UHGV virus genome: UHGV-1348655 | Reading direction: 5' to 3' (one strand) | DNA length: 23,392 nucleotides | Source of the DNA: a virus | In this document: one piece after another, positions 1,140-9,344 of the stretch | Position numbering within the stretch: position 1 is the first letter of the stretch | How the letters are laid out: each line of letters begins with the position of its first letter | Notes under the pieces: model-generated | What the model was told of the DNA's origin: nothing | The model's input: the letters and a program-made list of their open reading frames with translations, nothing else | Databases searched by the model: none | Program-made: the position numbers and the translations under genes

Positions 1140-2127
1140 CTATCAGGTACTGCGTGAGGCAGCAGTAGCAATTGAAACAGTAGCAACGCCTCAAAAATTG
1201 CTGGCATTTCGTATGAAATTCACACCTCAGGTTGTGCTGGCACTGCTGGATGAACGGGAAAGAAACCAGCAATACATCAAACGCCGCGACCAGGAGAACG
1301 AGGAAATTGCGCTAACGGTAGGGAAACTGCGTGTTGAGCTGGAAGGCAAAGACAGCAAAATAGCCAATCTTACCGCAGAACGCGATGCTCTTCGTGAAGG
1401 TGAGATGGGCGACGCTAGGCATAGCAACACACGGTCCGCAGCTGATATCTACTTCCAACTGGTCGAGGAGTGCGAAATTCCTGCTGGCGGATCTCTGGTC
1501 GAGTACGTTGATGATATGCGCGAGAAGCTGGAAGCCGCAGAGAAGCGCATTGCAGAACTGGAGTCGCTGACGGTACCACAGTTACCGCAGCCAGCGCCGG
1601 TAGCTGTGCCTGATGCGATGGAAATGGATGATGACTTTGACAGCGCGTTTGAACACGGAAAAGCTGTCGGCTGGAACGCCTATCGCGCCGCCATGCTTCA
1701 GGCCGAACCTGTAAGTAATAGTGATGAGTTACCGCTGGACTATCTGCAAGGACACAAAGACGGCCTGGAGTGGGCTGCACAATTGGCAGAAGCCAATCAT
1801 CCGCAAACAGGTGACTGGTTGTACGACGACCCAATCGATCTTGCCAGGGCGATTCGCAAAGGTCCTGATATGCCTACTGTTCAGGCTGGCAACTCTCCGG
1901 TAACTCCGGATGGTTGGATAAGCTGTAGTGAGCGAATGCCTGAAAAGGGCCAGAATGTGCTTATTTCGGTGAATTTCGATAGCTCTCTGGTTGAACCGCT
2001 AATATGCTCCGCACGCTATACCGGAAGCACCTTTCGGCGCGGAGATGCAACGATTAAGCCGGGTAATGGTATTGAGCAAGCAACTCACTGGATGCCGCTA
2101 CCAGAACCTCCGCTGGAGGCGAAGTAA
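1126..2127 (+). CDS. Ea22-like protein with C-terminal DUF551-type domain, 333 aa
   Basis: GTG start at 1126 preceded by AGGAGG (1114-1119). Residues LLDERERNQQYIKRRDQENEEIALTVGKLRVELE match lambda Ea22 as I recall it; the C-terminus (GWISCSERMPEKG...THWMPLPEPP) has the DUF551 signature common in prophage early regions. Confidence 0.75.
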   Translation: MSKIDYQVLREAAVAIETVATPQKLLAFRMKFTPQVVLALLDERERNQQYIKRRDQENEEIALTVGKLRVELEGKDSKIANLTAERDALREGEMGDARHSNTRSAADIYFQLVEECEIPAGGSLVEYVDDMREKLEAAEKRIAELESLTVPQLPQPAPVAVPDAMEMDDDFDSAFEHGKAVGWNAYRAAMLQAEPVSNSDELPLDYLQGHKDGLEWAAQLAEANHPQTGDWLYDDPIDLARAIRKGPDMPTVQAGNSPVTPDGWISCSERMPEKGQNVLISVNFDSSLVEPLICSARYTGSTFRRGDATIKPGNGIEQATHWMPLPEPPLEAK

Positions 2128-2525
2128 TGGAAAATGAAAGCGACAACGTCATCTCTCTGGTGCAGCCAAAGCGCAATGAAGAGAAACTGCTGAACATCAC
2201 TGTAACTGACAGAAAAAACTACATACAACATAGCTGTAAGCATCGGGCTATCGAGGTTTGTGAAACTGATCGCGTTGTTCGTTGCACAAAGTGCGGCTGC
2301 GTTATTGACCCCTTCGAGCACATCCTGCAGGTAGCTACTGATGGTGAGCATATCGTCACTGAGATTGAGCAACTCCATCGTCGCCGTGATGAGTTGCGCG
2401 AGTCTGTAGCCAACCTTGAGCGCGAAGAAAAGAACACCAAAGCACGGTTGCGAGCAGCAAGGACTGCAATACTGTATGCGGAAAATGACCTTAAAAATAT
2501 TGAGCAGGAGGTTAACCATGGCTAA
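2127..2525 (+). CDS. Hypothetical protein with Cys/His zinc-finger-like cluster and coiled-coil C-terminus, 132 aa
   Basis: TAATG overlap with the upstream gene; spaced Cys/His residues (HSCKH ... CTKCGC ... H) followed by a charged heptad-like tail. Confidence 0.55.
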   Translation: MENESDNVISLVQPKRNEEKLLNITVTDRKNYIQHSCKHRAIEVCETDRVVRCTKCGCVIDPFEHILQVATDGEHIVTEIEQLHRRRDELRESVANLEREEKNTKARLRAARTAILYAENDLKNIEQEVNHG

Positions 2526-2557
2526 CCTGCAACTTGCCGTCAAAGGTGAATAACAAT

Positions 2558-2612
2558 CCTCGCACTCGCGGGGATTTCTTTTATCTGAACTCGCTACGGC
2601 GAGTTTTGCTTT
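2558..2612 (+). terminator. Tandem intrinsic-terminator-like hairpins after the 132-aa gene
   Basis: CCTCGC-act-GCGGGG (2558-2573) followed by ATTTCTTTT, then AACTCGC-tacg-GCGAGTT (2588-2605) followed by TTGCTTT. Confidence 0.4.
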
Positions 2613-2625
2613 ATGGAGATGATAA

Positions 2626-2793
2626 ATGTACTTTCGAGTCACAGGTGAATGGAATGGAGAACCATTCAACAGGGTTATCGAAGCAGAGGACTTCAACGAC
2701 TGCTATGACCACTTGATGATATGGGCGCAGATAGCACATGCAGACGTAACCAATATTCGAATTGAAGAACTGAAAGAACACAAAACCGCCTGA
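2626..2793 (+). CDS. Small hypothetical protein, 55 aa (below the ORF-track size cutoff)
   Basis: ATG 2626 preceded by GGAG (2615-2618); open frame to TGA 2791-2793; a strong terminator follows immediately. Confidence 0.4.
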   Translation: MYFRVTGEWNGEPFNRVIEAEDFNDCYDHLMIWAQIAHADVTNIRIEELKEHKTA

Positions 2794-2809
2794 TGGCGGT
2801 TTTTTCTTG
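2782..2809 (+). terminator. Rho-independent terminator upstream of xis
   Basis: AAAACCGCC-tgat-GGCGGTTTT hairpin followed by TTTTTCTT. Confidence 0.6.
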
Positions 2810-2832
2810 CGTGTAATTGCGGAGACTTTGCG

Positions 2833-3051
2833 ATGTACTTGACACTTCAGGAGTGGAACGCACGCCAGCGACGCCCAAGAAGCCTTGAAACAGTTCGTCG
2901 ATGGGTACGCGAGTGCAGGATATTCCCTCCTCCGGTTAAGGATGGAAGAGAGTATCTGTTCCACGAATCAGCGGTAAAGGTTGACTTAAATCGACCAGTA
3001 ACAGGTAGCCTTTTGAAGAGGATCAGAAATGGGAAGAAGGCGAAGTCATGA
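2833..3051 (+). CDS. xis: Excisionase Xis, lambda type, 72 aa
   Basis: Sequence MYLTLQEWNARQRRPRSLETVRRWVRECRIFPPPVKDGREYLFHESAVKVDL matches lambda Xis; overlaps the int start as in lambda. Confidence 0.9.
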   Translation: MYLTLQEWNARQRRPRSLETVRRWVRECRIFPPPVKDGREYLFHESAVKVDLNRPVTGSLLKRIRNGKKAKS

Positions 3052-4099
3052 GCGCCGGGATTTACCCCCTAACCTTTATATAAGAAACAATGGATATTAC
3101 TGCTACAGGGACCAAAGGACGGGTAAAGAGTTTGGATTAGGCAGAGACAGGCGAATCGCAATCACTGAAGCCATACAGGCCAACATTGAGTTATTTTCAG
3201 GACACAAACACAAGCCTCTGACAGCGAGAATCAACAGTGATAATTCCGTTACGTTACATTCATGGCTTGATCGCTACGAAAAAATCCTGGCCAGCAGAGG
3301 AATCAAGCAGAAGACACTCATAAATTACATGAGCAAAATTAAAGCAATAAGGAGGGGTCTGCCTGATGCTCCACTTGAAGACATCACCACAAAAGAAATT
3401 GCGGCAATGCTCAATGGATACATAGACGAGGGCAAGGCGGCATCAGCCAAGTTAATCAGATCAACACTGAGCGATGCATTCCGAGAGGCTATAGCTGAAG
3501 GCCATATAACAACAAACCCGGTCGCAGCCACTCGCGCTGCAAAATCAGAGGTAAGGAGATCAAGACTTACGGCTGACGAATACCTGAAAATTTATCAAGC
3601 AGCAGAATCATCACCATGTTGGCTTAGACTTGCAATGGAACTGGCTGTTGTTACCGGGCAGCGAGTTGGTGATTTATGCGAAATGAAGTGGTCTGATATC
3701 GTAGATGGATATCTTTATGTCGAGCAAAGCAAAACAGGCGTAAAAATTGCCATCCCAACAGCATTGCATGTTGATGCTCTCGGAATATCAATGAAGGAAA
3801 CACTTGATAAATGCAAAGAGATTCTTGGCGGAGAAACCATAATTGCATCTACTCGTCGCGAACCGCTTTCATCCGGCACAGTATCAAGGTATTTTATGCG
3901 CGCACGAAAAGCATCAGGTCTTTCCTTCGAAGGGGATCCGCCTACCTTTCACGAGTTGCGCAGTTTGTCTGCAAGACTCTATGAGAAGCAGATAAGCGAT
4001 AAGTTTGCTCAACATCTTCTCGGGCATAAGTCGGACACCATGGCATCACAGTATCGTGATGACAGAGGCAGGGAGTGGGACAAAATTGAAATCAAATAA
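3029..4099 (+). CDS. int: Tyrosine integrase Int, lambda type, 356 aa
   Basis: Near-identical to lambda Int from MGRRRSHERRDLPPNLYIRNNGYYCYRD to the C-terminal catalytic region (HELRSLSARLY ... LLGHKSDTMASQY). Confidence 0.95.
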   Translation: MGRRRSHERRDLPPNLYIRNNGYYCYRDQRTGKEFGLGRDRRIAITEAIQANIELFSGHKHKPLTARINSDNSVTLHSWLDRYEKILASRGIKQKTLINYMSKIKAIRRGLPDAPLEDITTKEIAAMLNGYIDEGKAASAKLIRSTLSDAFREAIAEGHITTNPVAATRAAKSEVRRSRLTADEYLKIYQAAESSPCWLRLAMELAVVTGQRVGDLCEMKWSDIVDGYLYVEQSKTGVKIAIPTALHVDALGISMKETLDKCKEILGGETIIASTRREPLSSGTVSRYFMRARKASGLSFEGDPPTFHELRSLSARLYEKQISDKFAQHLLGHKSDTMASQYRDDRGREWDKIEIK

Positions 4100-4330
4100 T
4101 GATTTTATTTTGACTGATAGTGACCTGTTCGTTGCAACAAATTGATAAGCAATGCTTTTTTATAATGCCAACTTAGTATAAAAAAGCTGAACGCGAAACA
4201 GCAAAAGACAATAATATCAATGTGTTACAATGCATTTAGTCTAAAAGATAGACTGCATAATGCTACAAAACACAACATATCCAGTCACTATGAATCAACT
4301 ACTTAGATGGTATTAGTGACCTGTAACAGA
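4100..4330. other. Intact attP (P' arm, 15-bp core 4173-4187, P arm)
   Basis: The core is the reverse complement of the lambda core GCTTTTTTATACTAA. The int-proximal arm (4100-4172) matches lambda exactly as I recall it; the distal arm (4188-4330) is homologous but diverged centrally and keeps CAGTCACTAT-type arm sites. Confidence 0.8.
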
Positions 4331-4332
4331 GC

Positions 4333-4377
4333 ATTAGCGCAAGGTGATTTTTTGTCCTCTTGCGCTAATTTTTTGTC
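4333..4377 (+). terminator. sib/tI-like hairpin and terminator downstream of int across attP
   Basis: 11-bp stem ATTAGCGCAAG / CTTGCGCTAAT (4333-4343, 4359-4369) with a 15-nt loop, followed by TTTTTGTC; position matches the lambda sib retroregulation element. Confidence 0.65.
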
Positions 4378-4671
4378 AACTCACTGGGTTAGTTGAATTT
4401 ACAACCATGCTCAGTATCTCGATAAGCGCAGAGAAATGATGCAGTGGTGGGCGGATTGGCTTGATGAGAAGGTGTCATAGGGAAGCAGAACAAAGCCTTG
4501 CAAACCGATGCAAAGCATTGTGTGTACCACGTTACAGTTAATGAAAAACAATCATAAATGTCAATGATGTACATCTGAGAACCACATGCATAAAACATGA
4601 TTTCATTGGCTGATCAGAAGCTTCTCAAGTGCTACACTATCCAAGTCTGTTTTCGTCACGGTTAACTGACA

Positions 4672-4709
4672 AACAGGGCCCCGGCTATGAGAGTAGTTGG
4701 GGCCCTGTT
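4672..4709 (-). terminator. Hairpin 30 bp downstream of the membrane-enzyme gene (candidate terminator)
   Basis: AACAGGGCCCC ... GGGGCCCTGTT, an 11-bp GC-rich stem; on the minus strand it is followed by TTTGTCAGTT. Confidence 0.5.
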
Positions 4710-4739
4710 ATTACAACAAGGTTAAACAATCTATAATCT

Positions 4740-6197
4740 TTATTGCATGATATCTTTTGAAGACAACCCGTTTACAATTGGATTATATTGATAAAGCTTT
4801 TTGTCATATGACATTATCATTGGGTTATCATTTTCTTTAGAAAAAATATCATAGTTATCTATTGTTAAATTTGTCTTGACACCAATCCATGAAGCAAAAA
4901 AGTCAATAAAATGCTTGGCGCTTCTAGTTGTATCTGCCATTGTTGTTTCTTTGTCATCGCTAGAGGCAACAAAAAATGGAACTTGGTATGATTGTTTTTT
5001 TGATGCATCTCTTCTTACCTTATAACCATTGCCATCTTTAATCATATTTAATCCATGATCTGAAAAATACACCATGGAAAATGATTCACCAGAATCCTCA
5101 AGATATGTATATATATCCTTAATGAAATCATCTGTTTTGTTGTAAGTTGAAAGGTAGCAATTAACAACCCTGCCACTTTTTGTTTTATATTTTATTGGAT
5201 AATCAAACAATCGATCGCAAGGATATTCATGAGATCCAACAATATGAACAAATATAACTTTTCTTTCTTTTAGTTTTATCTTCTCTTTTATTACTGGAAG
5301 CAATCCGAAGTCATCAGCCTTGTTAAAATATTTAAATTTCGCATAGTTAGATATTCTGCTTGATGCAATATTATACTGCCCTGAATAACCTTGTGATGAT
5401 ATCCAAAAAGTATTAAGTCCAGCCATGTTTGCTAGCTCAACAATGTTGTCCTGCTCATAAACAGAACCATTATCACTTGTTTTAGACAGTATTCTTGGTA
5501 CGGCTAGAGTTGTGTTTATTGCTGTAGTTATATAATTACTAATGTATCTCTTGGGGATTGAGTCTATAAACGGTGTCGTATCTAAACTAAACCCATATAG
5601 CGACATGAAATCCTTTCTCATGGACTCACCAATAACAACAACATATGTATTATACTTTGGTGTAATCTTATTTTTTATCAACCAAGAACTTGCAGGAAGA
5701 TTATCTACCTGTAGGCTTTTATATTCCTTAATGATATCTGAAACCAACCCACCGAATATCATAAAGTAGCATGAAGATGTAATTAGTAGCAATGGGGTTA
5801 ATGTTATTAAAATTAATTTTCTTCTTATTTTTTTCTGTTCATAATTGAATGCATATATGATCGTGAAAACAAAAAGAAAAACTGAACAGACCATTATTAT
5901 TAAGTGCGTTGTTGGGATTGACATATGGAACTGTATTGTCTCGCTTATGTCTGTAGCAAGAAGTACGTCCAATAGTGACGGCTTTAATAGTCCTTTTGTT
6001 AGAATTGCATCTGGAATCAATACGCTAAGTAATATTCCAAAAATTAGCAATATAGTTCTTGGTATTTTAAACAAAGATAAAGAAAATAAAGTTATAAACG
6101 ATAGAAATAAAATTGATATATTTATGCTGCCAATTGCTATATATTGCATCAAATATGATAGCACAAAACTACATATTGCTATTAATAACAACTTCAC
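4740..6197 (-). CDS. Inner-membrane sulfatase-superfamily enzyme, phosphoethanolamine-transferase-like (EptA/MCR/YhbX-type), 485 aa
   Basis: GTG start at 6197 with AGAGGA 8 nt upstream. About five hydrophobic helices in the first ~160 residues, then a soluble domain with motifs VVVIGESMRKD, VHIVGSHEYP and YFSDHG that resemble the metal and nucleophile motifs of that family. The gene is visibly much more AT-rich than the phage backbone. Confidence 0.8.
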   Translation of the reverse strand: MKLLLIAICSFVLSYLMQYIAIGSINISILFLSFITLFSLSLFKIPRTILLIFGILLSVLIPDAILTKGLLKPSLLDVLLATDISETIQFHMSIPTTHLIIMVCSVFLFVFTIIYAFNYEQKKIRRKLILITLTPLLLITSSCYFMIFGGLVSDIIKEYKSLQVDNLPASSWLIKNKITPKYNTYVVVIGESMRKDFMSLYGFSLDTTPFIDSIPKRYISNYITTAINTTLAVPRILSKTSDNGSVYEQDNIVELANMAGLNTFWISSQGYSGQYNIASSRISNYAKFKYFNKADDFGLLPVIKEKIKLKERKVIFVHIVGSHEYPCDRLFDYPIKYKTKSGRVVNCYLSTYNKTDDFIKDIYTYLEDSGESFSMVYFSDHGLNMIKDGNGYKVRRDASKKQSYQVPFFVASSDDKETTMADTTRSAKHFIDFFASWIGVKTNLTIDNYDIFSKENDNPMIMSYDKKLYQYNPIVNGLSSKDIMQ

Positions 6198-6237
6198 TAA
6201 TACAGTCCTCTGTTAAGGAATATTAAATAGTGATGTT

Positions 6238-6243
6238 ATTATA
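6238..6243 (-). promoter_or_regulatory. Candidate -10 hexamer (TATAAT on minus strand) for the membrane-enzyme gene
   Basis: The minus strand reads GAGTATAAT about 40 bp upstream of the GTG start; the -35 element is weak or ambiguous. Confidence 0.3.
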
Positions 6244-6402
6244 CTCATTTTTTATAGTAATGAAAGATTCATTTTAAATGACATTCACATTTGATCGCCT
6301 TCTCCTACTGTAGGAGCGAGAAGGCGTGCTTAGTTGCTATAATTACTGGTGATGCTGCCAACTTACTGATTTAGTGTATGATGGTGTTTTTGAGGTGCTC
6401 CA

Positions 6403-6678
6403 GTGGCTTCTGTTTCTATCAGCTGTCCCTCCTGTTCAGCTACTGACGGGGTGGTGCGTAACGGCAAAAGCACCGCCGGACATCAGCGCTATCTCTGCTC
6501 TCACTGCCGTAAAACATGGCAACTGCAGTTCACTTACACCGCTTCTCAACCCGGTACGCACCAGAAAATCATTGATATGGCCATGAATGGCGTTGGATGC
6601 CGGGCAACAGCCCGCATTATGGGCGTTGGCCTCAACACGATTTTACGTCACTTAAAAAACTCAGGCCGCAGTCGGTAA
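6403..6678 (+). CDS. insA: IS1 InsA, 91 aa
   Basis: [43 protein letters not shown] is the canonical InsA sequence. Confidence 0.95.
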
Positions 6679-7100
6679 CCTCGCGCATACAGCCTGGCAG
6701 TGACGTCATCGTCTGCGCGGAAATGGACGAACAGTGGGGCTATGTCGGGGCTAAATCGCGCCAGCGCTGGCTGTTTTACGCGTATGACAGGCTACGGAAG
6801 ACGGTTGTTGCGCACGTATTCGGTGAACGCACTATGGCGACGCTGGGGCGTCTTATGAGCCTGCTGTCACCCTTTGACGTGGTGATATGGATGACGGATG
6901 GCTGGCCGCTTTATGAATCACGCCTGAAGGGAGAACTGCACGTTATCAGCAAGCGATATACGCAGCGCATTGAGCGGCATAACCTGAATCTGAGGCAACA
7001 TCTGGCAAGGCTGGGCAGGAAGTCACTGTCGTTCTCAAAATCGGTGGAGCTGCATGACAAAGTCATCGGGCATTATCCGAACATAAAACACTATCAGTAA
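6597..7100 (+). CDS. insB: IS1 InsB frame (transposase is made as InsAB' by a -1 frameshift)
   Basis: Canonical InsB reading frame overlapping the insA 3' end; the A-run frameshift site lies in the overlap. Confidence 0.9.
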
Positions 7101-7127
7101 GTTGGAGTCATTACCTAATTACTTAAT

Positions 7128-8948
7128 CTATTTTATTGACAGAACGCCAGATAAGGATATTTGTCTAGCAGAGCCAGATGATACATCTGTCCATCTGGCA
7201 TATCTTGTTGTTCCGTCGATGAAAGTTAATAAAAATTTAGCCGTGTTATCTGACACCACCTCTAAGGAAACATCATATAATTGTTTAGCTGAGTTTGCTG
7301 TAGCGTAGTAAAATGCGTACAGGCCACCATTAACTGTACCTCCAAATCCAGATTTAATGCCATAAACAGGAGCTATATTAACAATTACATCACCTGTTGC
7401 TGACGGTATAGCTGTTACTGTTGTAGCTATGGAAAAACTTAATGTGTTATACCATATTCCAGAGTTCAGAGTTTGGCCCGACATCGTTACACCAGCAGCA
7501 CTTGCAAGGACAGCTCCAGAGTTAGGTCCAATGGTCATTCCTGTACGCATTTTTTCAGCATATCCGTAGCCCGAGAAGTGATTACGAGCTATACCGGAAG
7601 CGCCTTCGAAAGATACCCAAAGATCTGTAGCATAATCGGGATTACTTACGCTAAAGTTATGGAATGAAGAACCCTGTGACGTGGTTATCATAGGTAACGT
7701 ACTTTTTCGAGGTGTGTCATTTTTAGACGCGGCAATAAGTACATCCGTAAAACTGGTATCCCACGCATCACAAATAAGCCCCACCCCACCGTTACTTCTA
7801 GACGGAACACTACCAGTGTTGCGCCTAACTGGAGTATCTAGGATTAAGTTAGAATACGAGGTGAAACCACCATTCTCAGTAACCCATAGCCCTACGTGCA
7901 TTTTCCCCATGACACCGACTAAATTATCTACGGTATTACCCCAAGGATGGAACTTATCTAAAGAGTTACCGGATTTAATAACCTTACCACCGTATGCGTA
8001 ACCAACTGGTGAAATCTCTGAATACCAGCCGTCCGTACATTTAATATGTAGGCCGATTGACTGGTCGGCTCGCGTATTTGCCACTACCATAGTGAATTTA
8101 GACGCTTTACCTTCGTAGCAAAATTCGTCCTCAAAACCGCCGTTGTTGAACCCAATTATTGCGCCGCCTTCGTATGTGTATCCGTAGCAATGTTGCACCC
8201 TAACGCCGATAGCGTTAATTCCTACCGTGTAATCCTGCGCCTCTAAACGCAAGCCGTAACAGTTAGTTTTGTTAGCTAGCGTAAAATGATCGGAGTTGTC
8301 GTAAGATGGGGTATCGGCACCACCATCCATTATATACGCATATGTTGAACTCAAACCGGCAGGAACAATTGCACGATGATTATTCCAGTAAACAGTAACC
8401 CCAGGCTTATGCATGATAGGAATTGTACTAAAAATGATGTCTTCATTCACATAAAGAACGCCGCCGCCACTTTCTGATATCTCAGTCATAGCTGCGTTAA
8501 ATGCATCTTCTCCTATTCCCCATCCGCGAAGGTCGCCTTCATCTTTCCATTTTTGTATAAGGGATGGAATAAGAAAATAGCCATCAGGTCCAGCAAGAAC
8601 CTGTCTTAGTTGGTCAGGGTCATACTTCAGCACATTCGGAAAATTAAACTGCTGCGCACCGTACGCATCATACACAGCCATAGAATGTCCTTGCACAGTA
8701 ACGAACTTGGCAATCTGTCCGTTATATACCGGATATCCAGCAGCGTTAATGATGATTGGTTGCGAAACAGGAACGTGAGAACCGTCTTCGTTCTCCACAT
8801 AAACCTGAATCTGGTTTTCAGGATTTACAGGGTCAGTGTCAATTTTACCGATATAAATTTTGCCATTGGCTACGGCTTTAAAAGAACGCGCCATAGTGAA
8901 GAGTTGCGAAGGCATCGATACGATCACATTGGCTGTAATGTCTGTCAT
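7128..8948 (-). CDS. Tailspike protein, 606 aa: P22-type N-terminal head-binding domain plus a divergent receptor-binding domain
   Basis: The N-terminus [46 protein letters not shown] ... VLKYDPDQ matches the P22/Sf6 tailspike head-binding domain; the remainder is unrelated to P22 gp9. GGAG lies 8 nt upstream of the ATG. Confidence 0.85.
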
Positions 8949-9080
8949 TTAATTTGCTCCAGATACAATGAATCGCCGCAGCGTGGCCACGGTTGGTATT
9001 TGTTGCATACCGAAACGGTACGATTGTTGATTTGTACAGTAGGTTTTACGATGCCATTCCACCCATTTGGTGAGGCATTG

Positions 9081-9344
9081 ATGATGTACAGCAAATACGA
9101 TGAGGCGCAGTTCCACTTGAGGCTTACGCACGAGTTGCACGCTAAGATTAAGCAGCGTGCAAAAATGAATAACAGGTCGCTGAACTCAGAGATAATTGCA
9201 GCGATTGAAGAATCATTGGATAAACAAAGCTCTGCATCAGTTTACATTGACGATGCAGAGCGTATGGCAGAACAACAATCCGATATGGTAAAGAAAATTG
9301 TCTTTGATACGCTCAAAGAGCTATATAAAAAAGACAGCAGCTAA
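9081..9344 (+). CDS. mnt: Mnt-like ribbon-helix-helix repressor, 87 aa
   Basis: The track ORF 8610..9344 is over-extended; the real start is ATG 9081 with GGTGAGG upstream. The C-terminus ERMAEQQSDMVKKIVFDTLKELYKK matches P22 Mnt (ERLADEQSELVKKMVFDTLKDLYKK as I recall it). It is transcribed divergently from the late operon, as in P22 immI. Confidence 0.75.
   Translation: MMYSKYDEAQFHLRLTHELHAKIKQRAKMNNRSLNSEIIAAIEESLDKQSSASVYIDDAERMAEQQSDMVKKIVFDTLKELYKKDSS

Follow-up and report, generated by a model that had tools for sequence, protein, structure and literature searches.

A putative OpgE-like phosphoethanolamine transferase gene in the conversion slot of a P22-like Escherichia coli phage: a candidate for O-antigen modification

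Temperate phages that alter the O-antigen of their enterobacterial hosts are described mainly as doing so by glucosylation or acetylation, and the tailspikes of the P22-like phages recognise the O-antigen. Conversion of this kind shapes serotype, vaccine coverage, the host range of phages used in therapy and immune evasion. Addition of phosphoethanolamine (PEtN) to the O-antigen converts serotype in Shigella flexneri (PMC3458804), and a 2023 review that arranges the PEtN transferases in 11 classes does not mention phage and gives only the plasmid-encoded Lpt-O for the O-antigen (PMC10525099). A further member of the family, OpgE, is the PEtN transferase for osmoregulated periplasmic glucans (OPGs), so that its acceptor is a glycan and not lipid A (PMC3818809). 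Here we consider a 23,392-nucleotide stretch of viral DNA, UHGV virus genome UHGV-1348655 (the window), in which a PEtN-transferase-family gene at 4740..6197 on the minus strand encodes a 485-amino acid protein in which five predicted transmembrane (TM) helices precede a catalytic domain of sulfatase fold, predicted to be periplasmic. We propose, with a rough probability of 0.6, that this gene is a lysogenic-conversion gene or 'moron' of a P22-like temperate E. coli phage, and that its product would transfer PEtN to a glycan of the lipopolysaccharide (LPS), most likely the O-antigen.

The open reading frame (ORF) lies on the minus strand at exactly the position given in an earlier, first-pass annotation of the window, is intact over its 485 codons and opens on GTG. 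An in-frame TAA stands 18 nt 5' of this codon, thus the GTG is the earliest possible start, and the ORF is real and not a chance one. The GC content of the gene is 0.307 (0.26 at third codon positions), compared with 0.506 for the virion genes and 0.489 for the window once the AT-rich cassette (4481..6347, the gene and its flanks) and a copy of the insertion sequence IS1 are set aside, which verifies the strong AT bias and foreign character that the gene had been credited with.

A Pfam profile search matches the Sulfatase family PF00884 to residues 184-439 of the protein (E 1e-35), and the automatic annotation at NCBI names it 'phosphoethanolamine transferase' or 'sulfatase-like hydrolase/transferase'. 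Each of the three motifs on which the first-pass annotation had drawn (VVVIGESMRKD, VHIVGSHEYP and YFSDHG) is located in the protein, with VVVIGES at residue 186, VHIVGSH at 317 and YFSDHG at 377. Hydropathy predicts five hydrophobic helices, at about residues 3-22, 24-42, 48-66, 99-117 and 129-150, and the loops rich in lysine and arginine (43-47 and 118-128) are predicted by the positive-inside rule to be cytoplasmic, so that the catalytic domain is predicted to be periplasmic. The earlier picture of a membrane protein of about five helices with a sulfatase-type domain is therefore sound, and the predicted topology agrees among hydropathy, the helices of an AlphaFold2 model and the alignments to two full-length structures, 5fgn and 9nww. 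The model, built from 50 relatives, has a pLDDT of 92.2 and a pTM of 0.89, and its top Foldseek matches in the PDB are the periplasmic domain of E. coli EptC (EcEptC), full-length MCR-1 determined by cryo-EM (9nww) and full-length NmEptA (5fgn). The last two align to it over 547-557 columns, suggesting that the whole architecture is common to the window protein, MCR-1 and NmEptA. By sequence, the nearest solved proteins are all PEtN transferases, namely E. coli EptC, C. jejuni EptC, MCR-1, MCR-2, NmEptA and ICR-Mc.

Specifically, residues E86, E191, T229, D296, H318, H323, D380 and H381 are invariant across a 50-sequence alignment and align, in that order, with E115, E244, T282, D357, H380, H385, D455 and H456 of EptA. 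They include the threonine nucleophile, the glutamate, aspartate and histidine metal ligands and the catalytic histidine, none of which is missing, and E86 is the conserved glutamate of a predicted periplasmic loop, the counterpart of EptA E115. The protein is thus predicted, with high confidence, to be a catalytically competent member of the PEtN transferase superfamily. Its only match in PHROGs is phrog_24438, of unknown function; in the BFVD viral structures only soluble sulfatase-like proteins of giant viruses match, and no bacteriophage protein does; the PADLOC defence models give no match.

The first-pass annotation had compared the protein with EptA, MCR and YhbX together, and had raised the alternative of an enzyme that acts on lipid A and alters susceptibility to polymyxin or cationic peptides. 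Were it to modify lipid A in the manner of EptA or MCR, the phage would spread lowered susceptibility to these agents; the superfamily, fold and catalytic residues are common to it and these enzymes, and some relatives are auto-annotated as 'lipid A phosphoethanolamine transferase'. However, the NCBIfam models for EptA, CptA, EptB and MCR score only 12-63 bits against cut-offs of 404-1250 (500-1250 for EptA and MCR), so that the profile search proposed earlier recovers the sulfatase family but not the EptA/MCR families, and the window protein is an orthologue of no curated enzyme. Among the five paralogues of E. coli K-12, blastp finds OpgE to be the closest (34.6% identity over 324 aa, E 2e-56), followed by YhbX (2e-30), EptC (8e-14), EptA (1.5e-11) and EptB (2.5e-6); EptA is thus only the fourth closest, and eptA is in any case already present in E. 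coli. PF08019 (EptA_B_N), which marks the membrane domain of EptA and EptB, is found in K-12 EptA (151 bits) and EptB (56 bits) and not in the window protein, its relatives P0003 and P0008, OpgE or YhbX. Moreover, Tyr392 stands in place of EptA H468 and EptB H476; EptC and OpgE have glutamine here, and pairwise alignment to MCR-1 puts a lysine at or near the site.

A pair of cysteines, C327 and C347, is common to OpgE and YhbX and not found in EptA, EptB or EptC, and may form a branch-specific disulfide. The pair is kept in 39 of 42 aligned proteins (37 OpgE-like proteins, K-12 OpgE and YhbX). In a neighbour-joining tree, which is a quick and rough distance tree, the window protein and its relatives of about 50% identity form their own clade inside a large OpgE-like radiation, apart from YhbX, EptC, EptA and EptB. 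Taken together, these sequence comparisons place the protein in the OpgE/YhbX-like branch of the PEtN transferases, outside the EptA/MCR branch. The likeness first drawn to EptA, MCR and YhbX therefore holds for the fold, the catalytic residues and the YhbX-like branch, but not for membership of the EptA/MCR branch. Placed so, and with PF08019 missing and model scores below cut-off, the protein is very unlikely to be a lipid A enzyme, and polymyxin resistance arising from the gene is likewise unlikely, although annotation and resistance pipelines could mistake it for a colistin-resistance gene of the MCR/EptA type. Kinship with OpgE makes a sugar a likelier acceptor than lipid A. It does not make the protein an OpgE orthologue: only residues 153-463 align, the clade is separate, and the gene stands in a phage context with no ompX-opgE arrangement.

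Genomic context is the main evidence for the function of the gene. The backbone of the window is that of an E. coli P22-like phage, whose virion genes are about 96% identical to those of IME10, APC_JM3.2 and many prophages, and the gene holds the position of a P22-like conversion cassette, which runs from the integrase and attachment-site side to the tailspike, with O-antigen-modifying alternatives at the same place in sister phages. Beyond it lies the gene for a P22-type tailspike of 606 aa (7128..8948, minus strand), whose head-binding N-terminus is conserved and whose receptor-binding domain is variable. The first-pass annotation had put the gene between attP and the tailspike; the conversion slot is as described, but IS1 intervenes before the tailspike and an 84-bp remnant of intS follows attP. 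That O-antigen conversion genes occupy this slot is corroborated by the sister prophages. In E. coli L65 the same slot reads intS-gtrA-gtrB-gtrC-tailspike, the 30COLEC prophage likewise has gtrABC between intS and a tailspike whose DNA is 89% identical to that of the window, and the GPEC1292 prophage has the order intS-acyltransferase-tailspike, with tailspike DNA 78% identical. A related tailspike receptor-binding region occurs in 3 of 5,426 complete E. coli genomes, and with the two inspected, 30COLEC and GPEC1292, the window makes a set of related-tailspike phages that carry three chemically different accessory genes at the same position.

The relatives of the protein are found in similar company. 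The next relatives are only 48-51% identical to it, and nine of the ten nearest, the window itself included, adjoin a phage receptor-binding or tail-fibre-assembly gene. In Morganella (P0003, 50% identity) the gene lies between an integrase and a P22-type tailspike; P0002 (Proteus), P0005 and L027 adjoin S74-type tailspikes; P0006, P0007 and P0008 adjoin tail-fibre-assembly genes of myovirus-type or remnant prophages; and a prophage contig from IMG/VR (L026) carries an O-antigen acetylase (phrog_6705, 1794..3650), a PEtN transferase (3667..5166) and a tailspike (5199..7907) in succession. This last locus has two putative conversion genes in tandem, the PEtN transferase being 51% identical to the window protein and the tailspike 902 aa long. 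IMG/VR holds 41 loci with relatives of the window protein, and among those with annotated neighbours five more distant ones (L036, L050, L054, L055 and L056) adjoin tail-spike, tail-fibre or chaperone genes. Because the clade is so tightly linked to receptor-binding-protein genes, the data suggest that a receptor-binding protein and a receptor-modifying enzyme travel as one exchangeable module.

The lone exception among the nearest relatives, P0004 (L023 6160..9530, 51% identity), stands beside genes for a cytidylyltransferase and a CDP-glycerol glycerophosphotransferase, near flagellar genes, which suggests a chromosomal polysaccharide-decoration locus from which the phage copies might derive. 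It is the only non-phage close relative, and its context would suit an acceptor other than LPS, whether OPGs as for OpgE, enterobacterial common antigen, capsule, colanic acid or cellulose; such an acceptor would also be in keeping with OpgE as the closest characterised paralogue. We nevertheless consider it improbable, as OpgE resembles the protein in the catalytic domain only, the tree separates the window clade from OpgE, modification of OPGs has no obvious benefit for a phage and the regular occurrence of relatives beside receptor-binding-protein genes speaks for a surface receptor.

It could also be proposed that PEtN is placed on an LPS core sugar (heptose, Kdo or an outer-core hexose), changing the receptors of other phages or the charge and stability of the outer membrane. 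EcEptC, a modifier of heptose I, is the best solved structural match, and proteins of Pasteurellaceae and Haemophilus are 31-32% identical over nearly the full length, several core-specific PEtN transferases being known in these genera (PMC10525099). In addition, the tail-fibre genes that some relatives adjoin belong to prophages that are Mu-like or otherwise of myovirus type, and these often bind the core. However, the NCBIfam CptA models give 63 bits against cut-offs of 404 and 900, P22-like tailspikes bind the O-antigen, and all the other known occupants of the slot modify the O-antigen, so we regard a core acceptor as rather unlikely.

At least 24 contigs encode exactly this protein, and four assemblies (GCA_036927065.1, GCA_966649305.1, GCA_038070795.1 and GCA_012993685.1) carry the exact gene. 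Copies of the cassette DNA at nine loci are 99.5-99.95% identical and fall into three integrase contexts: a lambda att site beside bioA, IntS beside the yfdC/mlaA region (where L65 has a tRNA-Arg), and a 387-aa integrase with lambdoid early genes. The shared DNA stops at 4490, at 4395-4397 or at 4169 according to the integrase context, with L010 and L012 diverging at 4169; the 3' flank of the cassette (4481..4739) is 99.5-99.95% identical among the other copies. At the opposite end the junction with IS1 is identical in eight of the nine loci (L008-L011 and L013-L016), and L012 ends at 6344, 4 nt short of IS1. A junction common to these copies indicates that IS1 had inserted before the cassette spread to three phage backgrounds. 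The intS-type remnant, 84 bp of integrase 3' end with its TAG stop (4397..4480, plus strand; 97.4% identity to the intS end of E. coli L65), indicates in turn that the cassette was formerly part of an IntS phage, which later exchanged its integration module for that of lambda (int-attP). A cluster at 90% identity or more (WP_145531639.1, 'MULTISPECIES: Enterobacterales') has members annotated from Hafnia paralvei, Yersinia kristensenii and E. coli. No close DNA match to the gene was found in 50,697 phage records or in 5,426 complete E. coli genomes, and by tblastn no match in the phage records exceeded 28% identity. The gene is thus absent from sequenced cultured phages, and is found only in draft assemblies, metagenomes and IMG/VR. 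PEtN transferases of E. coli plasmids were considered as a source and rejected, being only 31% identical and in an unrelated plasmid context.

The IS1 of the window (6348..7115, plus strand; 768 bp, insA/insB) is complete, is bounded by an 8-bp direct repeat, TAATTACT, at 6340..6347 and 7116..7123, and stands between the gene and the end of the tailspike gene, whose stop codon is at 7128. With IS1 removed, the gene would begin about 160 bp past that stop codon and run in the same direction. A single IS1 with its own 8-bp target duplication signifies a simple insertion, and IS1 as the vehicle of the cassette, in the form of a composite transposon, was rejected. On the gene side of IS1 are both a Shine-Dalgarno sequence, AGAGGA (6206..6211, minus strand), 8 nt before the GTG and in accord with the ribosome-binding site noted earlier, and a candidate -10 element, a perfect TATAAT (6238..6243, minus strand). 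The promoter that the first-pass annotation had put forward keeps this -10, but its -35 is poor (a weak CTTTCA at 6261..6266) and a consensus promoter scan called nothing within 6198..6347, upstream of the gene. The terminator it had described has a counterpart in a strong, terminator-like GC-rich hairpin with an 11-bp stem (4672..4709, minus strand; -27.3 kcal/mol, z = -3.3 for folding energy), which begins 31 nt past the stop codon, is followed by UUUGUCAGUU and has a loop longer than the consensus terminator scan allows. A second hairpin, between IS1 and the candidate promoter (6296..6326, minus strand; -17.2 kcal/mol, z = -2.3), may be the terminator of the late or tailspike transcript in the arrangement that preceded IS1, but it has no U-tract, which makes this reading a weak one. 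Signals of phase variation were looked for near the gene, and there are no long homopolymer tracts and a single GATC upstream.

The position of IS1, 150 bp upstream with only a weak promoter match left between, raises the question of whether the cassette is passenger DNA that has no effect in the lysogen, either unexpressed since the insertion or decaying. This we hold to be highly improbable, as the ORF is intact with all catalytic residues present, the -10 element and Shine-Dalgarno sequence lie on the gene side of IS1, and the occurrence of the exact protein on so many contigs, in three phage backgrounds and with the same IS1 junction, indicates an arrangement that persists and spreads.

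Returning to the neighbours of the cassette, a lambda-type attP region (4100..4396) matches those of lambda and 434 and contains the lambda core sequence TTAGTATAAAAAAGC at 4173..4187. Upstream of it are the ORFs of a lambda-type integrase (3029..4099, plus strand) and of Xis (2833..3051, plus strand), assigned as lambda Int and Xis. The integrase and the cassette flank an intact lambda core, whereas L010 and L012 are integrated and joined to the bioA side; this attP configuration indicates that the window derives from an excised or virion genome, as opposed to an integrated prophage. In its receptor-binding part (7128..8600) the tailspike shows 69-80% protein identity to tail proteins of unrelated phages, namely Salmonella phage LPST94, Kayfunavirus pO91, ECO340P1, PH1061 and Hafnia phage Meifeng; the tail protein of pO91 is 75% identical in this part, and the name of that phage is only a hint to an O-serogroup. 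An Arc/Mnt-like ribbon-helix-helix ORF (8949..9344, plus strand) adjoins the tailspike gene, as in P22 immI, and the mechanically called ORF at 8610..9344 is over-extended, as it overlaps the 5' end of the tailspike gene.

We therefore favour a conversion gene that acts on the O-antigen. Its donor and acceptor, its activity in the lysogen and the resulting phenotype are inferred as follows. By analogy with EptA and MCR-1, the five-helix membrane domain would take phosphatidylethanolamine, the donor, from the outer leaflet of the inner membrane. Thr229, activated at a metal site formed by Glu191, Asp380 and His381, with His323, would form a PEtN-enzyme intermediate, and the PEtN would then pass to a sugar hydroxyl at the periplasmic face of the inner membrane. 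As the first-pass annotation held, the acceptor cannot be read from the sequence; from context it is most likely the O-antigen repeat unit, either linked to undecaprenyl pyrophosphate (Und-PP) or in nascent LPS, because the neighbouring P22-type tailspike binds the O-antigen, which is accessible on the periplasmic side as a polymer carried by Und-PP. The O-antigen is the receptor of the phage's own tailspike, and its modification would convert the serotype of the lysogen and lower the adsorption of this phage and of others with the same specificity.

Several points weigh against this proposal. The clade of the window protein has no characterised members; OpgE, the characterised enzyme closest to it, has soluble periplasmic glucans and not LPS as its substrate (PMC3818809); and no similarity to the window protein can be detected in Opt, the one enzyme proven to place PEtN on the O-antigen (BLASTP E 0.3). 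The promoter is a -10 match only, with IS1 now 150 bp upstream, so that expression in the lysogen is presumed, and the gene is codirectional with the tailspike, whereas gtr and oac converge on it. Finally, morons of many functions settle next to tail-fibre genes, which makes adjacency to receptor-binding genes suggestive but not specific.

Neither the enzyme family nor the phage strategy is new; it is their combination that is without description in the literature that we searched. We found no account there of a phage-borne PEtN transferase in a conversion slot, in a search that covered few subscription journals, and an earlier description is possible. A paper on a Klebsiella N15-like phage (PMC12029707) reportedly mentions a phosphoethanolamine transferase, and a survey of Acinetobacter prophages names pmr/MCR-type enzymes only as resistance genes. 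For Proteus, at least one paper (PMC11728032) reportedly refers to ethanolamine phosphate in connection with an O-antigen. It seems to us an even question whether the OpgE-like PEtN transferases are a widespread and unrecognised class of phage receptor-converting enzymes, coupled to receptor-binding genes, of which this cassette would be a spreading example. Such a class would stand alongside glucosylation and O-acetylation, and would be carried by prophages of podovirus and myovirus type in Escherichia, Morganella, Proteus and further genera. If this is the case, conversion by PEtN would differ in kind, as the substituent is zwitterionic and alters charge; it would be invisible to O-typing by the O-antigen gene cluster; and it might explain non-stoichiometric PEtN in O-antigens whose clusters encode no PEtN transferase.

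Of the described systems, OpgE (YbiP of K-12) is like the window protein in its catalytic residues, in its cysteine pair (C371/C389, corresponding to C327/C347) and in having no PF08019. It differs in that opgE is a core chromosomal gene beside ompX, whereas the window protein belongs to a separate and mostly phage-borne clade, and presumably the acceptors differ also. EptC/CptA (heptose I), EptA and MCR-1 (lipid A) and EptB (Kdo) have the same architecture, fold and catalytic residues, but EptC, EptA and EptB are only 21-25% identical to the window protein, in the catalytic domain alone, and the equivalog cut-offs are far from reached.

Opt/Lpt-O of S. flexneri, encoded on pSFxv_2, is the functional analogue that we propose, as it is a single mobile gene that converts serotype by attaching PEtN to the O-antigen (PMC3458804). 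Like the window gene it is AT-rich (29.3% GC), and its product is of about 500 aa with a C-terminal sulfatase domain. In contrast, it is plasmid-borne and matches the LtaS and YejM models, which belong to another branch of the alkaline phosphatase superfamily; the idea that the window gene is a phage copy of opt was rejected, there being no significant similarity. On pSFxv_2, recovered as NC_017320.1 (L148) by BLAST of the published primers, opt has an IS1 directly upstream in the same relative orientation (1523..3043 and 3281..4045), 93% identical to the IS1 of the window. The presence of IS1 beside AT-rich surface-modification genes may be coincidence or a recurring association.

The GtrABC and Oac/OacB cassettes of P22, Sf6 and other phages share with the window gene the same slot, the AT-rich composition and the proposed modification of the receptor. 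The chemistry would be different, with PEtN from a phospholipid in place of glucose from Und-P-Glc or an acetyl group, and so is the layout, as the window cassette has one gene where gtrABC has three and is codirectional with the tailspike where the others converge on it.

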